64,000 bases of DNA from Candidatus Bathyarchaeota archaeon (GCA_963832745.1 CAWHVC010000003.1:576001-640000); one strand, 5' to 3'. Shown: positions 38,020 to 43,769, numbered from the stretch's first letter. Numbers and translations are program-made. The notes: generated from the sequence alone by a model not told the origin.

Positions 38020-38811
38020 TTAGGGCGATTTATTGTCGAGTTTAATGTTAAAGAAAGTTTCAAAGTTTTTGGCGACCTGCTCAGCGACGTCGTTGACCTG
38101 CATGTTTTTGATTTCAGCAACTGCTTCCAGCACTGTTTGTATGTAGGAGGGCTTAGTTAATTGTCCACTGAACGGTTTTTTCCAGTAAGTTACTGGACCG
38201 TCGGTTTCGCTTAAAAAATTGGTTATCGGCGTTTGCTTTACAACTTCACGGATGCCGTTGGAGTAAACAACTGGTGGACCTTCAGTGATAAAGTAGCCTT
38301 GGTCTATTGCTTTGCTCAGTGTTTCCATTGGATGACTAAACCAGTGCAGCAATACGCGTTTCAAACTGTAAGACTGCAGCATTTCTACGATTTTGTCTGT
38401 TGTACCTCTTGAGTGAATGATAACTGGCAGGTCAAGTTGCTCGGCGAGATGAAGCATTTTATCAAAAACAAGCATCTGGTTTTCCCAAATGGTTTCGTAC
38501 TTGTAGTCTAAACCGATTTCTCCAATGGCTGCGAGACGTCTTTTTTGGCTTTGTTGTAGGATGAAATCTATTGTTTCTTGCAGTTCATCTTCTTTTAGAT
38601 AGTTTACGTTCCACGGGTGTATGCCAAGCGCTGGATAAATCAAGTCAGGATACTGTTCTGCAAGTTTTATGTCGTTTTGGCAGGTTCTTAGGTCCATTGA
38701 GTTTGTGACGAGCGCGGACATTCCTGCGTTTTTAGCGTCTGCTATCACTTCATCTAAATGCCCATTGTATTCTGTATCGGAAAGGTGAATATGTGCATCT
38801 ACTAGTTTCAT
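38020..38811 (-). CDS. tatD: TatD family hydrolase
   Basis: DAHIH, GIHP, IGEIGLD, IHSR and ETDGP motifs. Confidence 0.93.
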   Translation of the reverse strand: MKLVDAHIHLSDTEYNGHLDEVIADAKNAGMSALVTNSMDLRTCQNDIKLAEQYPDLIYPALGIHPWNVNYLKEDELQETIDFILQQSQKRRLAAIGEIGLDYKYETIWENQMLVFDKMLHLAEQLDLPVIIHSRGTTDKIVEMLQSYSLKRVLLHWFSHPMETLSKAIDQGYFITEGPPVVYSNGIREVVKQTPITNFLSETDGPVTYWKKPFSGQLTKPSYIQTVLEAVAEIKNMQVNDVAEQVAKNFETFFNIKLDNKSP

Positions 38812-38960
38812 CTTTGTCAGCGCCTAATAACGTCACGACATTTTTATAACTTTTCTTATTGCCCCTTAACTCTAGCGGTAGAAGGGTAATTTAAAGAAAT
38901 AACTTACAACAAAGGTTAAATATTGCTTTAATTAGAAAAAGAGGCTGCAGAGATGTCGTT

Positions 38961-39182
38961 ATGACTGAATTAGAAATAGCTGTAGCCCCCATGCATAGAT
39001 TATGCAAGAAAGCAGGAGCAGACCGCGTAAGTGAAGCAGCAGCCAAAGAACTCGCCAAAGCCTTAGAGGAAATCGGCGTAAAAATCGCCAAAGAAGCACT
39101 CGATTTTGCAATGCACGCAGGCAGAAAAACCATCAAGTCCGAAGACATAGAAATTGCCGCCAAAAAAGTAATGGGCAAGTAA
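38961..39182 (+). CDS. Archaeal histone
   Basis: AGADRVS...[12 protein letters not shown] histone-fold signature. Confidence 0.95.
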
Positions 39183-39250
39183 GGTAACGTTCACTAGTTA
39201 ACCAGTTTCCCTTTCTTCTTTCTTTTTGTATTTTAACCGCTGAAAGTCTT

Positions 39251-39312
39251 TTTCAACATTTAATGGCTCAAAAAGCGCTTAACTGACCTACCCCCTATAG
39301 GTTTCTGCATAG
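39251..39312 (-). repeat. Dispersed intergenic repeat, copy C (part 1; interrupted by the transposon)
   Basis: Minus strand reads CTATGCAGAAACCTATAGGGGGTAGGT...GCCATTAAATGTTGAAA. Confidence 0.75.
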
Positions 39313-39596
39313 GGTTCTGTTTCCTTGTCGTCTGTTTTGTCTTTCCATTGATTGCCTGTTACCATTCGTCTGCTCAACGGTTCAATAATGGATATAGCTT
39401 TTCTTGGCACAACCTCAAACGTATAAAGCGTACCATCTATGCCTTGTCCATTAACTAATTTTTTATTGCCATACGAACCATCAAAAATTTCAGTTACCTC
39501 AATAATTTTACATTTTTGTATAGGAACATCACAAGTATGAGTAGCGAAATCTCTTTCAGCAAACATTTTCCCACAATGTGAACATTTAACTAACAT
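39288..39596 (-). CDS. Transposon passenger: small zinc-finger protein reading through the left TIR
   Basis: CSHC..F...HTC motif; the C-terminus is encoded by the TIR and the stop lies in flanking host DNA. Confidence 0.65.
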   Translation of the reverse strand: MLVKCSHCGKMFAERDFATHTCDVPIQKCKIIEVTEIFDGSYGNKKLVNGQGIDGTLYTFEVVPRKAISIIEPLSRRMVTGNQWKDKTDDKETEPYAETYRG

Positions 39597-40159
39597 TTCG
39601 ATAAATCCCCAATTTCACTATCATTATCACGAATGTATTTGTTTATGATAGCCTTTTTTTTCGCTAATTTATCGTTTAATTTCTGTAATTTTTCATTTCT
39701 TTCCTTTAAAACTAAGTTTTCTTCTTCAAGAGCCTTTAGTTTTTTACCTAATCCAATTTCATCAATTAAGTTGTTAGTATCAGCCCTTTCAATATTGTCA
39801 AAGAGAGCAACGACAACATCATTCCTTCGTTTCTTTAAGGCATTTAATGTATTCATGGCAGTAATGAAGGAACTAGATAAGATGGAATCAGGTTTATTTT
39901 CTTGTTTGGAATAGAATGCAACCGTTTCATCCATAAGACATTGAACTTTAGTGTACTCTGCAATATGTTCTGCAATAATATCAGCCAATGAAAATTCTTT
40001 TTTGATAGAACGCCCAAAAAAATCTGTTCCCATTGTTCTTTCCACTATTAAAGTTCTTGCTTCAGGTTTTAGGATTAAATCTTTTTCATGGAACTTTTTA
40101 ACAAATGCGTCTACTCTTTTATAAATAGGGTCTGTATCTTCTCTTATTTCTTCAGTCAT
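39590..40159 (-). CDS. Transposon passenger: hypothetical coiled-coil protein
   Basis: 189-aa AT-rich ORF with heptad-rich C-terminus. Confidence 0.7.
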   Translation of the reverse strand: MTEEIREDTDPIYKRVDAFVKKFHEKDLILKPEARTLIVERTMGTDFFGRSIKKEFSLADIIAEHIAEYTKVQCLMDETVAFYSKQENKPDSILSSSFITAMNTLNALKKRRNDVVVALFDNIERADTNNLIDEIGLGKKLKALEEENLVLKERNEKLQKLNDKLAKKKAIINKYIRDNDSEIGDLSKC

Positions 40160-40162
40160 TTT

Positions 40163-40339
40163 TTACACATCGGTTAATTTTTTGACTACAGCAACTCTTT
40201 TGCCGTCAATTATTTCCATTTTCCATTCAAGCTTATCATTGTCTGTCAATTCAAGAAAAGCTACTATTCCTTCGGGAACTGTTGCACGTAGAGAACTTGA
40301 GCCAGGTCTTGCTTCTGTCAGTTTGCTTTTTAAACTCAT
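40163..40339 (-). CDS. Transposon passenger: AbrB/MazE-type DNA-binding protein (58 aa)
   Basis: MSLKSKLTEARPGSSSLRATVPEGIVAFLELTDNDKLEWKM...; below the ORF-track cutoff. Confidence 0.8.
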   Translation of the reverse strand: MSLKSKLTEARPGSSSLRATVPEGIVAFLELTDNDKLEWKMEIIDGKRVAVVKKLTDV

Positions 40340-40361
40340 AGTATTGCCTCAACTATCAATA

Positions 40362-40442
40362 TACCTACAGGTTGTATTTATAACTACTGATTAATCAGCC
40401 AACAAGTTTATATACACATACCTGTATAGTAACCTGTAGGTA
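40362..40442. promoter_or_regulatory. Divergent promoter region with 12-bp inverted operator pair
   Basis: TACCTACAGGTT (40362-40373) and AACCTGTAGGTA (40431-40442); TATA-like TTTATAA and TTTATATA; central palindrome CTGATTAATCAG. Confidence 0.7.
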
Positions 40443-40449
40443 GAAACGT

Positions 40450-41574
40450 ATGTCAACAAGACCAACAACCACAAGAACAGAACGGGGACAAGCAATAGCA
40501 AACGCTAGCAATCAAGTAACAAGAATAGACGAACTCCTTTACATCGTACAATCACAAAGCGGACACGGCGAATACGCAGTCAACAAAATAAACCATGAAT
40601 GGTACTGCGACTGCCCCGACAACAAACACCGAAAAGTGACATGCAAACACATCTACGCCGTATTATTCTCACAATCCATAAGAGCAGAGGTTAAAGCAAA
40701 AACAACAAGAACAATCGCCCCAATAGGCAACCTATCAACATGCATCTATTGCAGTTCAAGCAACCTAAAGAAAGACGGCATACGCAAAAACAAAACAGGC
40801 GCAATCCAAAAATTCTATTGCCGAGATTGCCATAAATACATGACTTTTAACATAGGCTTTGAACGAATGAAACATAATCCCCAAGCAATCACAACAGCCA
40901 TACAACTATACTTCTCAGGGGAATCGCTAAGAAACACAATGGAATCCTTAGAACTCTTAGGCGTTAAAGTTTCTCATAAGACAATTTTCATGTGGATAAA
41001 AAAATATGTTAAACTGATGAAAGACTACGCTGATAAATTAGTTCCCGATGTCTCAGACGCATGGAGAGCAGACGAAATACGCTTCAAGGTAAGAGGCAAC
41101 ATGAAATATCTTTTTGCCGTGATGGATGATGAAACACGCTTTTGGATTGCTCAAGAAGTAGCAGATACAAAACATAGCCATGACTGTTTTAACCTGTTTA
41201 AGCAAGCTAAAACCGTAATGGGCAAACAACCAAAGAAAATTATTACTGATGGGCTTTACTCGTTTGCGGCTGCTGCCGAGGTAGAACTTGATGATGCAAA
41301 ACACATACGCCACATTCGCTTAAGAGGAGATGTACACAACAATAAGATGGAACGCCTCAACGGTGAAATCCGTGATAGAGAAAAGACCATGCGAGGACTC
41401 AAAACAGTAAAAACCGACATATTCAACGGAATGCAAATCTATCATAACTTTATCCGACCACATGAAGCCTTAGAAGGCAAAACACCCGCCGACGCATGTG
41501 GCATAGAAATTCAGGGCAAAAATAAATGGATAACCCTAATACAGAATGCTACTCATGATAGACAATCGTGTTGA
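40450..41574 (+). CDS. IS6-family DDE transposase with N-terminal SWIM and zinc-ribbon domains
   Basis: CDCPD...CKH (SWIM), CIYC...CRDC, WRADE / ITDG / NKMER DDE triad, YHNFIRPH..L.GKTPA. Confidence 0.92.
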   Translation: MSTRPTTTRTERGQAIANASNQVTRIDELLYIVQSQSGHGEYAVNKINHEWYCDCPDNKHRKVTCKHIYAVLFSQSIRAEVKAKTTRTIAPIGNLSTCIYCSSSNLKKDGIRKNKTGAIQKFYCRDCHKYMTFNIGFERMKHNPQAITTAIQLYFSGESLRNTMESLELLGVKVSHKTIFMWIKKYVKLMKDYADKLVPDVSDAWRADEIRFKVRGNMKYLFAVMDDETRFWIAQEVADTKHSHDCFNLFKQAKTVMGKQPKKIITDGLYSFAAAAEVELDDAKHIRHIRLRGDVHNNKMERLNGEIRDREKTMRGLKTVKTDIFNGMQIYHNFIRPHEALEGKTPADACGIEIQGKNKWITLIQNATHDRQSC

Positions 41575-42250
41575 CAATAGCAGTGTCTAAAGAGGGCACA
41601 CTATTTTCTAATTTTCCAATGCTTATACTTTTTACTCTTAATTCTCCGCAATATTTCATCTTTTTTTCTATGCCTTCAGCTATCAGTCGAATGTATATTT
41701 TTGAAATTAACTGATTAATAGAAATAGTAACAGATTTAGCGTTTTTAGGCATGATTATTATTCTTTCAAATATCTTGTTTTTTATGACGTTTTTCTCAGG
41801 GGCAATTTCATAAACGGAAAATTGTACTGCATGATTTGAGGGTTTACCTTTTGTGATAATGTTTCCAGTTTTTTCTAATTTCGTGACGTCTTCAATGTAA
41901 GTCAGTGATAGGTAGTAGGGAGAAATCCAGCTTGGGTCTTCACCTACGAATAATTTTGTTCTAGCTTTAGGTACTCCGTTTTCTATCCAAGGATAAATAG
42001 CATTATTGAATTTTGCGTATGCCTCGTTTAATTCTTTACCCTGCTCTATAGTGATGCCGAAACCCATTGTTTCTGAGTGTTTGGTTGGCGTATTAGACAA
42101 GATATATGGAGCCACAGAAACATTCATTTTTAGTCTGTTAAAATAAGCGTTCAGTCGTTCACCAACCACGATAACTGCAACTCCCCCAATAAAACCAAAA
42201 AAGCCTGCTATGATTTCGTTTGATGACATGATGCTTAGTTGCTTTCTCAT
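41549..42250 (-). CDS. Transposon passenger: hypothetical protein with N-terminal membrane anchor
   Basis: 233-aa AT-rich ORF inside the TIRs, convergent with the transposase. Confidence 0.7.
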   Translation of the reverse strand: MRKQLSIMSSNEIIAGFFGFIGGVAVIVVGERLNAYFNRLKMNVSVAPYILSNTPTKHSETMGFGITIEQGKELNEAYAKFNNAIYPWIENGVPKARTKLFVGEDPSWISPYYLSLTYIEDVTKLEKTGNIITKGKPSNHAVQFSVYEIAPEKNVIKNKIFERIIIMPKNAKSVTISINQLISKIYIRLIAEGIEKKMKYCGELRVKSISIGKLENSVPSLDTAIVNTIVYHE

Positions 42251-42377
42251 AATATTTAGATTTTACCAAATTAGTTCTAGCCGTGAATTTTAGGACAGCC
42301 AGCCCAACATACCCCCAAAACCTTTGAGCAGACGAAAAGTAACATGGAGAAGGTACAGACGAAGAGGTAACAGAACA

Positions 42378-42410
42378 CTGCATAGAACCACTATTTGGAT
42401 CCTAATAGGT
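42378..42410 (-). repeat. Dispersed intergenic repeat, copy C (part 2)
   Basis: CTATTTGGATCCTAATA (42391-42407) is identical to 5085-5101. Confidence 0.75.
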
Positions 42411-42536
42411 TGATATGAAAAGTAAAGCTGTAGTTGGGCGATTGGGTGTTTTCTGCTTTTTTTGCTTTTCAGTTGGCGAAAGTGGTTTTGGGCGAACTCT
42501 TAAATCTAAACGCTGTCAGTGCTTCTTTGAGACATT

Positions 42537-43769
42537 ATGCGACTCTCAATCGTTGCTGTTGTTATCACTGTTACACTTGTTTTCAGTGTATCCTTTTCAG
42601 GGTTCTTTTTGCATTCAGTTATTGCCTCAACAGTAAAGACAGACGAACAGCCTCTAACAAAACCCATGCTGCTTTGGAATTATACCGTAGGCACCCCCAT
42701 TCTTTCTCCAGTGGTTTCTAACGGTGTAGTTTACGTTTGCTCAAACACCGAAGTTTTTGCTTTCAACACACGTAACGGTTTGCAACTTTGGAAATCGGTT
42801 GTCCCTCAGTCAATAGTGGCGCCGCCTGCTATGTTCAATGATGTTCTGTATGTGGGTGGCTGGAACTATGTTTTAGCCTTAAACGTCAAAACTGGTGAGC
42901 AACTCTGGGTTTTCTCGCATACTAAAGGAGCCATTGATTATACTGCCCCTGTAGTTACAGACAATATTGTATATTTTGGTGCTCAATCAGACGGTTTTAC
43001 AGCCTTAAACGCGAAAAACGGTGCCCGATTGTGGTATTATCTTAAAGATGAGCAAGTTGGCAACTCTTTGCCTGTTTATTCAGCCCCTGACATATACGGC
43101 GGTAAAGTTATTTTTAGCTGCTCTGACGGCAATGTTTACGCATTAAACGCTACTAATGGTGAAAAGCTTTGGAATTATACAGTTGGCAAATTCGCTATAG
43201 CCTCTCCTACCGTAAACGATGAAGTAGTGTACGTTGGCTCAAATGACGGTTTTTATGCTATAACTGCTGTTAACGGTGAGCAATTGTGGAACTTTACTGG
43301 TCAATTGGTTTCATCGAAGCCCAGCATTAAGGACGGCATTGTTTACTTTGATTGCTATGATGGAACTCTCTACGCTTTGAACGCCACAAATGGTCAAGTA
43401 GTCTGGATTTTTAACGTTGCTTCCTATTTGAATTCAGGTTTACTTTTTTCTTCATCTCCAACCATTGACGAAAGCACGCTTTATGTCGGCTCAGGAAATG
43501 GAACCATTTATGCATTGGATGCTAAAAATGGCAGTAAGCTTTGGAACTTTACGGTCAGTGACGCCGCTTTATCGTCGCCTACAAAAGCAAACGGCGTACT
43601 ATGCATAACCTCTCAGGATGGCAATATTTACGCTTTACAAGTTTCATCGGTCCCAGTATCGCCTACGCCATCTCCATTGCATATTTCATTTTCGAACCCA
43701 ACGACAATCATATCTATAGCTGCATTGTTAATTGTCGCAGTAGCTTTGATAATATTTCAAAAAAAATAA
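42537..43769 (+). CDS. PQQ-like beta-propeller surface protein
   Basis: Repeated YALNA.NG..LW / SSP motifs, signal peptide, C-terminal TM helix. Confidence 0.92.
   Translation: MRLSIVAVVITVTLVFSVSFSGFFLHSVIASTVKTDEQPLTKPMLLWNYTVGTPILSPVVSNGVVYVCSNTEVFAFNTRNGLQLWKSVVPQSIVAPPAMFNDVLYVGGWNYVLALNVKTGEQLWVFSHTKGAIDYTAPVVTDNIVYFGAQSDGFTALNAKNGARLWYYLKDEQVGNSLPVYSAPDIYGGKVIFSCSDGNVYALNATNGEKLWNYTVGKFAIASPTVNDEVVYVGSNDGFYAITAVNGEQLWNFTGQLVSSKPSIKDGIVYFDCYDGTLYALNATNGQVVWIFNVASYLNSGLLFSSSPTIDESTLYVGSGNGTIYALDAKNGSKLWNFTVSDAALSSPTKANGVLCITSQDGNIYALQVSSVPVSPTPSPLHISFSNPTTIISIAALLIVAVALIIFQKK

Follow-up and report, generated by a model that had tools for sequence, protein, structure and literature searches.

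How does a transposase of a type that usually makes up an insertion sequence (IS) by itself come to lie with four other genes between one single pair of ends? This question is raised by positions 39313-42377 of a 64,000-nucleotide stretch of DNA from a Candidatus Bathyarchaeota archaeon (GCA_963832745.1, CAWHVC010000003.1:576001-640000), called here the window. IS6-type elements are minimal ISs with one gene, which move cargo only as two-copy composites. An earlier note, made from the sequence of the window, had claimed that this unit is a complete, cargo-carrying IS6-family transposon relying on a single transposase and having several sites at each end. The present analysis leads to a related answer: the unit is very probably a complete, single-copy member of a widespread family of archaeal IS6-like DDE transposons, which hold their genes within one pair of ends and whose ends are each made of two sites. 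Because the genes are carried within one end pair, these elements are transporter ISs, i.e., unit transposons. The element of the window possesses genes foreign to transposition, one transposase gene and a duplication at its outer ends, as known for this class, and its two-site ends agree with the proposed single-transposase, multi-site architecture.

The limits of the element were established by reading the sequence between 39200 and 42500. The 8-mer CTGCATAG lies at 39305-39312 and again, without any change, at 42378-42385, and encloses exactly 3,065 bp. The outer inverted repeats (Table 1) share 19 of 23 positions when counted by hand; the repeat finder returns them as a pair of 25 nt, 84% identical, because it includes 2 nt of the duplication. 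The inner inverted repeats, 39357-39377 versus 42324-42344, share 19 of 21 positions and are lengthened by the repeat finder to 26 nt (88%, 23/26). The unit, its exact 8-bp flanking repeat and its outer and inner inverted repeats were thus confirmed. A TGTT-N6/7-CGTCTG core had also been reported at all four sites, and counts in the window against shuffled sequences agree with it. TGTT-N7-CGTCTG is present three times, at both outer sites and at an unrelated position, 26244 (0.15 expected; 0/100 shuffles reach three), and TGTT-N6-CGTCTG twice, at both inner sites (0.15 expected; 1/100 shuffles reaches two). Both tips contain the cTGTt of IS6 elements (left, GGTTCTGT; right, TGTTCTGT) and were counted as being of the IS6 type, which combines this motif with a GG start. 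The unit includes five open reading frames (ORFs), all of them intact, namely the transposase gene on the plus strand and four genes on the minus strand. Its G+C content is 36.4% versus 42.2% for the window and is lowest over genes A and B (0.30-0.33). Rfam gave no match at E≤0.1 over 38500-43000, and a sigma-70 promoter scan of the region was uninformative, the host being an archaeon.

The surrounding DNA indicates what was there before the element. The left flank ends in a 26-nt motif that occurs 50 times in the 3.0-Mb genome at up to three mismatches, while its reversed control does not occur at all. Elsewhere in this genome, and in a same-genus genome, there are uninterrupted repeat copies that match both the ~27 nt ending the left flank and the ~50 nt opening the right flank, with an overlap of 7-8 bp between the two matches. 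When read directly, such copies display one CTGCATAG-type 8-mer, then a sequence resembling the right flank of the window. Since the left flank, one 8-mer and the right flank rebuild a normal copy of the repeat, the 3,065 bp were inserted here, and the 8 bp are the duplicated target. The element, which is single-copy in the genome, has therefore interrupted one copy of a dispersed repeat of its host by a simple insertion that duplicated 8 bp. This repeat is intergenic (for example at C3:710619, C4:35994 and C5:155137 of the host genome, G000), and its 26-nt motif precedes two or three near-palindromic CCTAWTAGG-type boxes with a roughly helical spacing. It could be a protein-binding array, a repetitive extragenic palindromic (REP)-like element or an RNA. 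A simple promoter was also considered and rejected, because 28 of the 50 copies have no ORF of at least 60 codons within 200 nt downstream. Among public reads, one DNA run (0.05 of words) yielded two exact 151-nt contigs left of the junction, together with diverged pieces of relatives' transposase genes. None of these bridges a junction or an empty site, and the reads speak neither for nor against an insertion; no RNA run matched the words of the element.

The relatives of the transposase are numerous. In contigs taken from one genome per species, 295 of 313 candidate stretches encode such relatives; the hosts are mostly Bathyarchaeia, with Nitrososphaerales, Nitrosopumilus, Nitrosotenuis, one Methanoperedens and one Atabeyarchaeum. 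In the same way, relatives are encoded by 596 of 600 stretches among the matches listed for the Joint Genome Institute (JGI) metagenomes, and 5,195 protein clusters match the transposase at E≤1e-10. Among the matches listed, most have no database name, the others being called "putative transposase" or "transposase-like protein", with one "transposase" and one "IS6 family transposase". At a closer range, transposase DNA 64-71% identical to that of the window is found in at least 10 of 24 same-genus genomes. Transposases 61-65% identical were also met in bacterial bins, in metagenome-assembled genomes (MAGs) of Limnocylindrales (L049, L062), Saccharibacteria (L059) and Pirellulales (L071). Two of these four loci are on short contigs (4.4-6.4 kb), and the contigs of the other two measure 17-39 kb; a transfer to bacteria seems no more likely than an error of binning.

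The units around these genes were delimited by scanning 159 loci and the window (160 sequences) with end models derived from a few ends found by hand. This revealed 69 units with an exact 8/8 flanking repeat, of which 65 are non-redundant, 64 of these having a transposase gene; the lengths range from 2,129 to 7,128 bp (median 3,201). Seen from the genes, 63 transposase genes are bracketed by inward-facing tips. The nearest tips have 8/8 repeats in 50 cases, and four of the other 13 have such repeats with a farther tip. The earlier note had proposed looking in Bathyarchaeia and Nitrososphaeria for a recurrence of bipartite ends and 8-bp duplications around variable cargo, and these 65 units provide it.

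The two-site structure is a property of the whole group. In the elements first delimited, inspection by eye reveals in 17 out of 17 that the outer site of the tip is accompanied by a related inner site. Over 92 ends, the inner site begins ~33 nt in at most right ends and either 33 or 42-45 nt in at left ends. The end subfamilies vary in both half-sites (e.g., TGTTAC, TGTAAA or TGTGAA for one and CGTCTG, CGTCGG or CGGTTG for the other). At the same 92 ends, the inner site agrees with the outer site of its own element at 12.55 of 16 positions, versus 10.32 (standard deviation 1.43) for the inner site of another element and 9.06 for shuffled sites. On these scores, the inner site co-varies with the outer one within each element, which would be expected if one protein reads both.

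Double repeats could also result from nesting, the inner repeats belonging to a smaller IS lodged within a shell or an older copy that provides the outer ones. The sequence relationship between outer and inner sites, reminiscent of the ends of sibling elements, and the nested and adjacent ends found among relatives (e.g., L045 and L093) are in favour of such an origin. However, the 8 nt outside the two inner sites of the window differ, so that the inner pair has no flanking direct repeat, whereas the 8-bp duplication is at the outer tips in the 65 non-redundant units; this is the reason for rejecting nesting here. Furthermore, the same layout, with spacings of ~33 and 42-45 nt, recurs and co-varies in diverged elements, a result that independent nestings would not yield. 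Nesting is thus very improbable, and the two-site end remains the preferred reading.

Some units lack the transposase gene. L043 8175-8937 (763 bp), L127 6369-7276 and L128 8380-9287 (908 bp for the latter two) have two-site ends of the family type and 8-bp duplications without any transposase gene. They are candidate non-autonomous derivatives, similar to miniature inverted-repeat transposable elements (MITEs). Besides, the genome of the window harbours a second two-site end of the family type, from another subfamily (G000:C1:161944, plus strand). Neither a partner end, within 12 kb, nor a transposase match in the vicinity was found for it, and it may be a solo end or what is left of a decayed element.

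The features of the element and those collected from its relatives are gathered in Table 1.

Table 1. Features of the element and of its insertion site in the window, followed by features of related loci.
Feature	Position or locus	Strand	Description
Left half of host repeat	39287..39312	+	26-nt motif ending in CTGCATAG; 50 genome copies; uninterrupted copies have a single CTGCATAG
Gene A, 102 aa	39288..39596	-	C-x2-C ... H-x-C metal-binding motif, beta-rich core
Outer left terminal repeat	39313..39335	+	Tip GGTTCTGT; homologous to tips of 65 related units
Inner (subterminal) left repeat	39357..39382	+	44 nt inside left tip; repeat finder and core motif
Gene B, 189 aa	39590..40159	-	Small N-terminal alpha/beta domain, then long leucine-zipper-like coiled coil
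Gene C, 58 aa	40163..40339	-	Small AbrB/MazE-type protein, divergent from transposase gene; proposed repressor
Divergent control region	40340..40449		Two AT-rich TATA-like boxes back to back, flanked by inverted AACCTGTAGGTA pair
Transposase gene, 374 aa	40450..41574	+	SWIM ~50-73, zinc ribbon 98-127, helix-turn-helix region, DDE D208/D267/E301
Right-arm cargo gene, 233 aa	41549..42250	-	N-terminal hydrophobic helix; putative membrane protein
Inner right repeat	42319..42344	-	33 nt inside right tip; repeat finder and core motif
Outer right terminal repeat	42355..42377	-	Tip TG where family has GG
Right duplication copy (42378-42385) and remainder of host repeat	42378..42431	+	CTAWTAGG-type boxes; paralogous repeat copies
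Variable-arm cargo of relatives (right or left arm)	L040		DNA methylase fused to Mrr nuclease domain
Variable-arm cargo of relatives	L097		Fic
Variable-arm cargo of relatives	L035		GNAT acetyltransferase
Variable-arm cargo of relatives	L070		ParB-HTH-DUF488
Variable-arm cargo of relatives	L042		PIN, weak match
Variable-arm cargo of relatives	L065		Trypco2
Variable-arm cargo of relatives	L043		DUF7768 and 8xMP match just below cut-off
Head-to-tail arrays	L040 4914/4923, 8425/8434; L043 8166/8175; L059 1648/1657; L061 7253/7262; L072 9051/9060		8-bp gaps
Head-to-tail arrays	L083 8105/8114; L100 12011/12020; L103 8561/8570; L111 9269/9278; L127 6360/6369		8-bp gaps
Head-to-tail arrays	L129 3945/3954; L135 4050/4059; L162 3332/3341		8-bp gaps
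Palindrome-linked insertions	L039, L040, L045, L051/L141, L052, L055, L063, L129/L135, L189

The transposase had been described as a combination of SWIM, zinc-ribbon and DDE domains, and Pfam matches and an alignment with ISCpe7 and eight diverse relatives bear this out. Pfam recognizes DDE_Tnp_IS240 (PF13610) at residues 203-322 (53.6 bits for a cut-off of 27) and SWIM (26.4 bits for a cut-off of 19.6), and a four-cysteine zinc domain of the IS1/IS1595 type is weakly matched at residues 98-131. The catalytic triad lies in the motifs WRADE, ITDG and NNKME, with spacings of 59 and 34 residues. In 72,556 plasmids, annotated IS6-family transposases are matched by residues ~131-361, most closely the ISCpe7-family genes of Clostridium perfringens (~34% identity), with ~25% for IS257-type enzymes, while residues 1-130 match nothing in this set. 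In the alignment, the zinc ribbon corresponds to the first zinc finger of ISCpe7; the second finger of ISCpe7 is missing here, whereas an extension of ~95 residues bearing the SWIM domain is added. Other traces of related transposases were noticed in the same genome: a paralog 35% identical that lacks the first ~95 residues (G000:C1:544200-545030), a fragment of the N-terminal part with one TGA (G000:C2:97733-97996) and a C-terminal fragment of 30 residues, 67% identical (G000:C5:507818-507907). A partial transposase 94% identical (P0006) is present on a 3,073-bp contig.

The genes other than the transposase gene do not all behave in the same way across the family. The transposase gene starts ~1 kb from the left tip throughout (median 1,032 bp), and minimal elements of 2.1 kb have a full left arm without any right-arm gene. 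By its position, the left arm is thus a conserved ~1-kb module and not cargo. The idea that the unit holds four passenger genes has to be abandoned for this reason: three of them belong to this positionally conserved module, found even in the minimal elements, and the 233-aa gene alone acts as cargo. Inside the module, gene A is not wholly included in the unit, since its frame continues through the two left repeats and ends in the flank, 25 nt beyond the tip. A frame of at least 60 codons leaves through the left tip in 43 of 61 units and through the right tip in six of 61, and this dependence of gene A on the flank for its end is therefore a habit of the family. In an alignment of nine sequences, C5, C8, H20 and C22 of protein A are invariant. 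Gene B stands for a real protein family, its profile reaching 369 representatives at E≤0.001 (165 at E≤1e-10). Its structure model has a predicted local distance difference test (pLDDT) score of 86.7; a protein language-model atlas had no usable match for it, and the predicted complex of A and B (score 0.01) gives no verdict.

Gene C adjoins the transposase gene, as does a small minus-strand gene of the left arm in 58 of 63 units. Its product is of the AbrB/MazE type in 27 of them and ribbon-helix-helix (RHH)-like in 31. In the alignment of C, 29 of 32 family members match PF04014 (MazE_antitoxin), the best with an E-value of 1.6e-8. The AACCTGTAGGTA 12-mer located between C and the transposase gene occurs at 40362-40373 (minus strand) and 40431-40442 (plus strand) and nowhere else in the window (0.17 expected). 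Relatives with an AbrB-type gene have an analogous inverted pair, TCTACCTA / TAGGTAGA, and those with an RHH-type gene have other inverted repeats.

AbrB/MazE and RHH are the usual antitoxin folds, and operons of type II systems start with the small gene. Hence the operon of the left arm (C, B, A) could be read as a toxin-antitoxin-like addiction or conflict module that stabilizes the element and takes no part in its transposition or control. The antitoxin-type fold of C, its replacement by an RHH-like protein in other elements, the place of the small gene at the head of the operon, and the richness of the relatives' cargo in Fic, GNAT, a weakly matching PIN and a restriction-modification fusion are all consistent with this. 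On the other side, no toxin family of Pfam, NCBIfam, PHROGs or PADLOC matches A or B, a coiled coil makes up most of B, and the operator-like repeats bracket both promoters, including that of the transposase gene, which fits a regulator of the element. An addiction module is unlikely, and C is more probably a repressor of the element. More generally, a search of the four non-transposase proteins in PADLOC, PHROGs and NCBIfam returned nothing meaningful.

The right arm differs widely from one element to another, 49 to 3,472 bp lying between the end of the transposase gene and the right tip. The 233-aa protein encoded there in the window has no family in Pfam, NCBIfam, PHROG or PADLOC. Its 11 database homologs (62-84% identity) are ~226 aa long and all named hypothetical; their length suggests a start at the second Met, and the cargo protein is thus probably 226 aa long. 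The protein language-model atlas places it only in unnamed clusters below 0.9. Distant homologs occupy the equivalent position in L050, L053 and L056, and the variable arms of relatives hold several more ORFs without assigned family besides the cargo of Table 1. Judged from this diversity, the right arm appears to be a variable cargo slot, in which the 233-aa gene behaves as cargo. The suggestion of a gene-capture vehicle consequently holds for the right arm, whose content varies among relatives, and not for the left one, which is a conserved module.

These features suggest how the element could work. The SWIM, zinc-ribbon and helix-turn-helix part of the transposase would bind both sites at each end and pair the ends, and the DDE domain (D208, D267, E301) would make target cuts staggered by 8 bp. 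The AbrB/MazE-type protein C may act on the inverted AACCTGTAGGTA pair and thereby repress both of the back-to-back promoters. A and B would be accessory proteins, and the cargo, here a putative membrane protein, would ride in the right arm. The pathway could involve either cointegrates or cut-and-paste transposition, which cannot be told apart by the 50 simple insertions with duplications among 63.

Several observations weigh against parts of this interpretation. The IS6 label of the enzyme is one of them: PF13610, the tips and the 8-bp duplication speak for it, but NF033587, the IS6 model of NCBIfam, is narrowly missed (117.1 bits for a cut-off of 125, although profile positions 1-201 of 202 are covered with an E-value of 8.2e-34), and the identities with IS257 and ISCpe7 are low. 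IS6 membership is therefore a borderline label for this IS6-like enzyme. Protein C of the window has no Pfam match when taken alone, its class being assigned via the alignment, and the RHH label of other elements comes from sub-threshold matches of five of seven proteins tested. Concerning A and B, comparison of their models (pLDDT 70.4 for A) with PDB structures gave no fold at E≤0.001, the rows listed being coiled coils or chance matches, and a profile of B built on 53 sequences found only coiled-coil families in Pfam and PDB sequences. B-type genes were detected in 23 and A-type genes in 25 of 63 units, a heterogeneous distribution, and any role of A and B in transposition is a guess. As for the insertion, the precise empty site that had been expected exists as paralogous copies of the interrupted repeat and not as an orthologous site: at 11 same-genus loci, the left flank is found in 11/11 and the right flank next to it in 0/11.

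The state of this particular copy is also to be considered. It could be a stranded relic, i.e., a member of the family that is unable to move, a possibility that deserves attention while being the less probable one. The genome holds this sole copy, hence no direct sign of recent movement, and the right tip starts with TG, the only one of 130 family tips that does not begin with G (GG in 123, GA in six). This odd tip may cripple the right end and argues for some decay. The left end, for its part, scores low with the family end model, 9 bits versus 20 for the right end. Against this, the five frames are open, the DDE triad is present, the duplication is perfect and the inner sites still agree at 23 of 26 positions.

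How far does this family depart from elements already described? According to the available portions of PMC7986276 and PMC6807381, IS6 members measure 0.7-0.9 kb, those of clostridial clades with zinc-finger extensions reaching ~1.7 kb; their ends are single repeats of 14-20 bp, and the archaeal members catalogued are small. The tips begin with GG and contain cTGTt, and ISDsp3 is the one IS6 member reported with a passenger gene (available part of PMC7986276). The words "SWIM" and "subterminal" are absent from the text of PMC7986276 and PMC6807381. The element shares with IS6/IS26 proper (IS26, IS257) the IS240/IS6-type DDE domain, a helix-turn-helix region before it, GG tips with CTGT, and the 8-bp duplication. 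It differs from them by its size and content, 3.1 kb and five genes (2.1-7.1 kb in the family) versus ~0.8 kb and one gene, by the presence of a second site 33-45 nt inside each end where IS6 elements have a single repeat, and by ~130 additional N-terminal residues that carry the SWIM finger and the zinc ribbon. Furthermore, most copies of the family are simple insertions with duplications, an end product that does not distinguish the cointegrate pathway, the exclusive one in IS6 elements, from cut-and-paste.

The best catalogued match, ISCpe7, is a long clostridial IS6 element (clade h of Varani et al., clade VII of Harmer and Hall), with 34% identity over residues 131-361. It is ~1.3 kb long and has one gene, a second zinc finger and no SWIM domain. 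No subterminal second site is evident in ISCpe7, as judged from one non-exhaustive repeat scan of one copy, which returned only a 12-nt candidate pair. ISDsp3 from Dehalococcoides, compared by its partial description only, is likewise of the IS6 type with a non-transposase gene inside its ends. This element is known as one bacterial copy of 1,456 bp with a single hypothetical passenger. In contrast, at least 65 members of the present, archaeal family were delimited, and this family possesses a conserved regulator gene as well as a slot in which the cargo varies.

Tn7, phage Mu and IS21 are known to have several sites per end that bind the transposase. The resemblance to them is limited to the layout of the ends, with more than one related site per end and unequal left and right spacing, and nothing homologous to their accessory ATPases or target selectors was seen among the genes of the element (Pfam, NCBIfam). 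The aloposons of Heimdallarchaeia are characterized, in the available part of PMC8813620, by tandem giant genes (3,000-6,000 aa), integration in tRNA genes and a MinD/ParA-like ATPase module. None of these features is found in the element (ORFs, Pfam), and the two are thus unrelated. A literature search, with ISfinder, TnCentral and the supplements of PMC7986276, PMC6563490 and PMC13343696 outside its scope, gave no SWIM-bearing IS6-like cargo transposon, no two-site IS6 ends and no archaeal TATA-adjacent targeting. In the same way, the architecture is not described in the available parts of the 2026 archaeal IS survey (PMC13343696), or in those of the papers on the Thaumarchaeota mobilome (PMC6563490), Atabeyarchaeia (PMC11529989) and aloposons (PMC8813620). 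Apparently, this is a large, undescribed archaeal family, IS6-like in its enzyme, tips and duplication and different in size, gene content and end structure; it probably also differs from IS6 in its choice of targets.

This choice is best seen in relatives. Exactly 8 bp separate a right tip from the next left tip in each of the 16 pairs of tips lying no more than 60 nt apart (14 without two doubly collected loci). Nearly all the tips visible in such arrays share one 8-mer, present in up to four copies, and neighbours come from different end subfamilies; the exceptions are one flank off by 1 base in L043 and by 2 in L061. Another context is a TATA-like hexamer whose end lies 2-8 nt from the duplication. 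It is present at 25 of 61 sites, against one to four sites for equal windows placed 14-41 nt away. With two hexamers added, a TATA-like box is found at 26 of 61 sites (on the left in 15, on the right in 10, on both sides in one). At the site of the window, the duplication begins 3 nt past a CCTATAGG box, which is a loose fit to this class. A third context is a palindrome of the TTAAGAGTAGCTACTC type (AGTAGCTAC): in 11 of 11 sites (9-10 when non-redundant), the duplication begins exactly 18 nt after its core, AGTA(A/G)CTAC. Genes beside three of these sites were tested, and they include one ECF-transporter S component and one ABC ATPase.

Such regularities could reflect either guided targeting or the survival of tolerated insertions. 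The nucleotide precision of the 8-bp gaps and of the 18-nt palindrome distance argues for targeting, and the repeated use of one context-defined spot would explain the 8-mers shared within arrays. Ty3 from yeast inserts at the starts of genes transcribed by RNA polymerase III and IS30 targets its own repeats. The relatives resemble them by nucleotide-precise, context-defined insertion points, although the element classes and enzymes are unrelated. A broader reading can be put forward only tentatively, the odds being against it. The family would read DNA-bound complexes or special DNA shapes and thereby choose its targets to the nucleotide, as may be indicated by its insertions a few bases from TATA-like boxes, by those at exactly 18 nt from a palindrome that resembles an operator and precedes ECF-transporter genes, and by those into the 8 bp adjoining the tip of an element already in place. 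Head-to-tail arrays of different elements sharing one 8-mer, built up by repeated hits on a single spot, would then be a platform that gathers defence and conflict genes in Bathyarchaeia and Nitrososphaeria, and A and B, or the SWIM domain, would act as targeting adaptors. It is a part of this same doubtful reading that the left-arm proteins A and B are conserved yet fast-evolving.

The spacing rules found in relatives allow guided target choice to be tested on a simple DDE transposase, and a targeting of such precision could serve as a tool for site-directed insertion in archaea. To our knowledge, almost no mobile DNA of this kind has been described in Bathyarchaeia and ammonia-oxidising archaea, for which the family provides a concrete vehicle of gene flow. 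It forms a very large archaeal branch, with thousands of transposase clusters, that is built unlike IS6, having two-site ends, a proposed repressor of its own, an accessory module and a cargo slot. Annotation is concerned as well: units of 2-7 kb should be called as single elements, while at present only the transposase gene is named, and in a minority of entries.

Two other observations concern insertion sites. L155 533-3485 (2,953 bp) and L125 163-2405 (2,243 bp), which belong to different end subfamilies, are inserted at one and the same homologous site of two metagenome contigs, where they have duplicated CTGCATAG and TTGCATAG, respectively; the 8-mer of L155 is that of the window, in an unrelated context. 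In the window itself, the region to the right of the element (42415-43769) starts with the conserved ATG of the repeat (42415), which opens a frame of 73 aa only. An ORF of 410 aa with beta-propeller-like repeats begins at 42537, in a frame different from that of this ATG; it has either its own start or a frameshift or assembly error in a T-run. The insertion of the element parts this ORF from the repeat box upstream.

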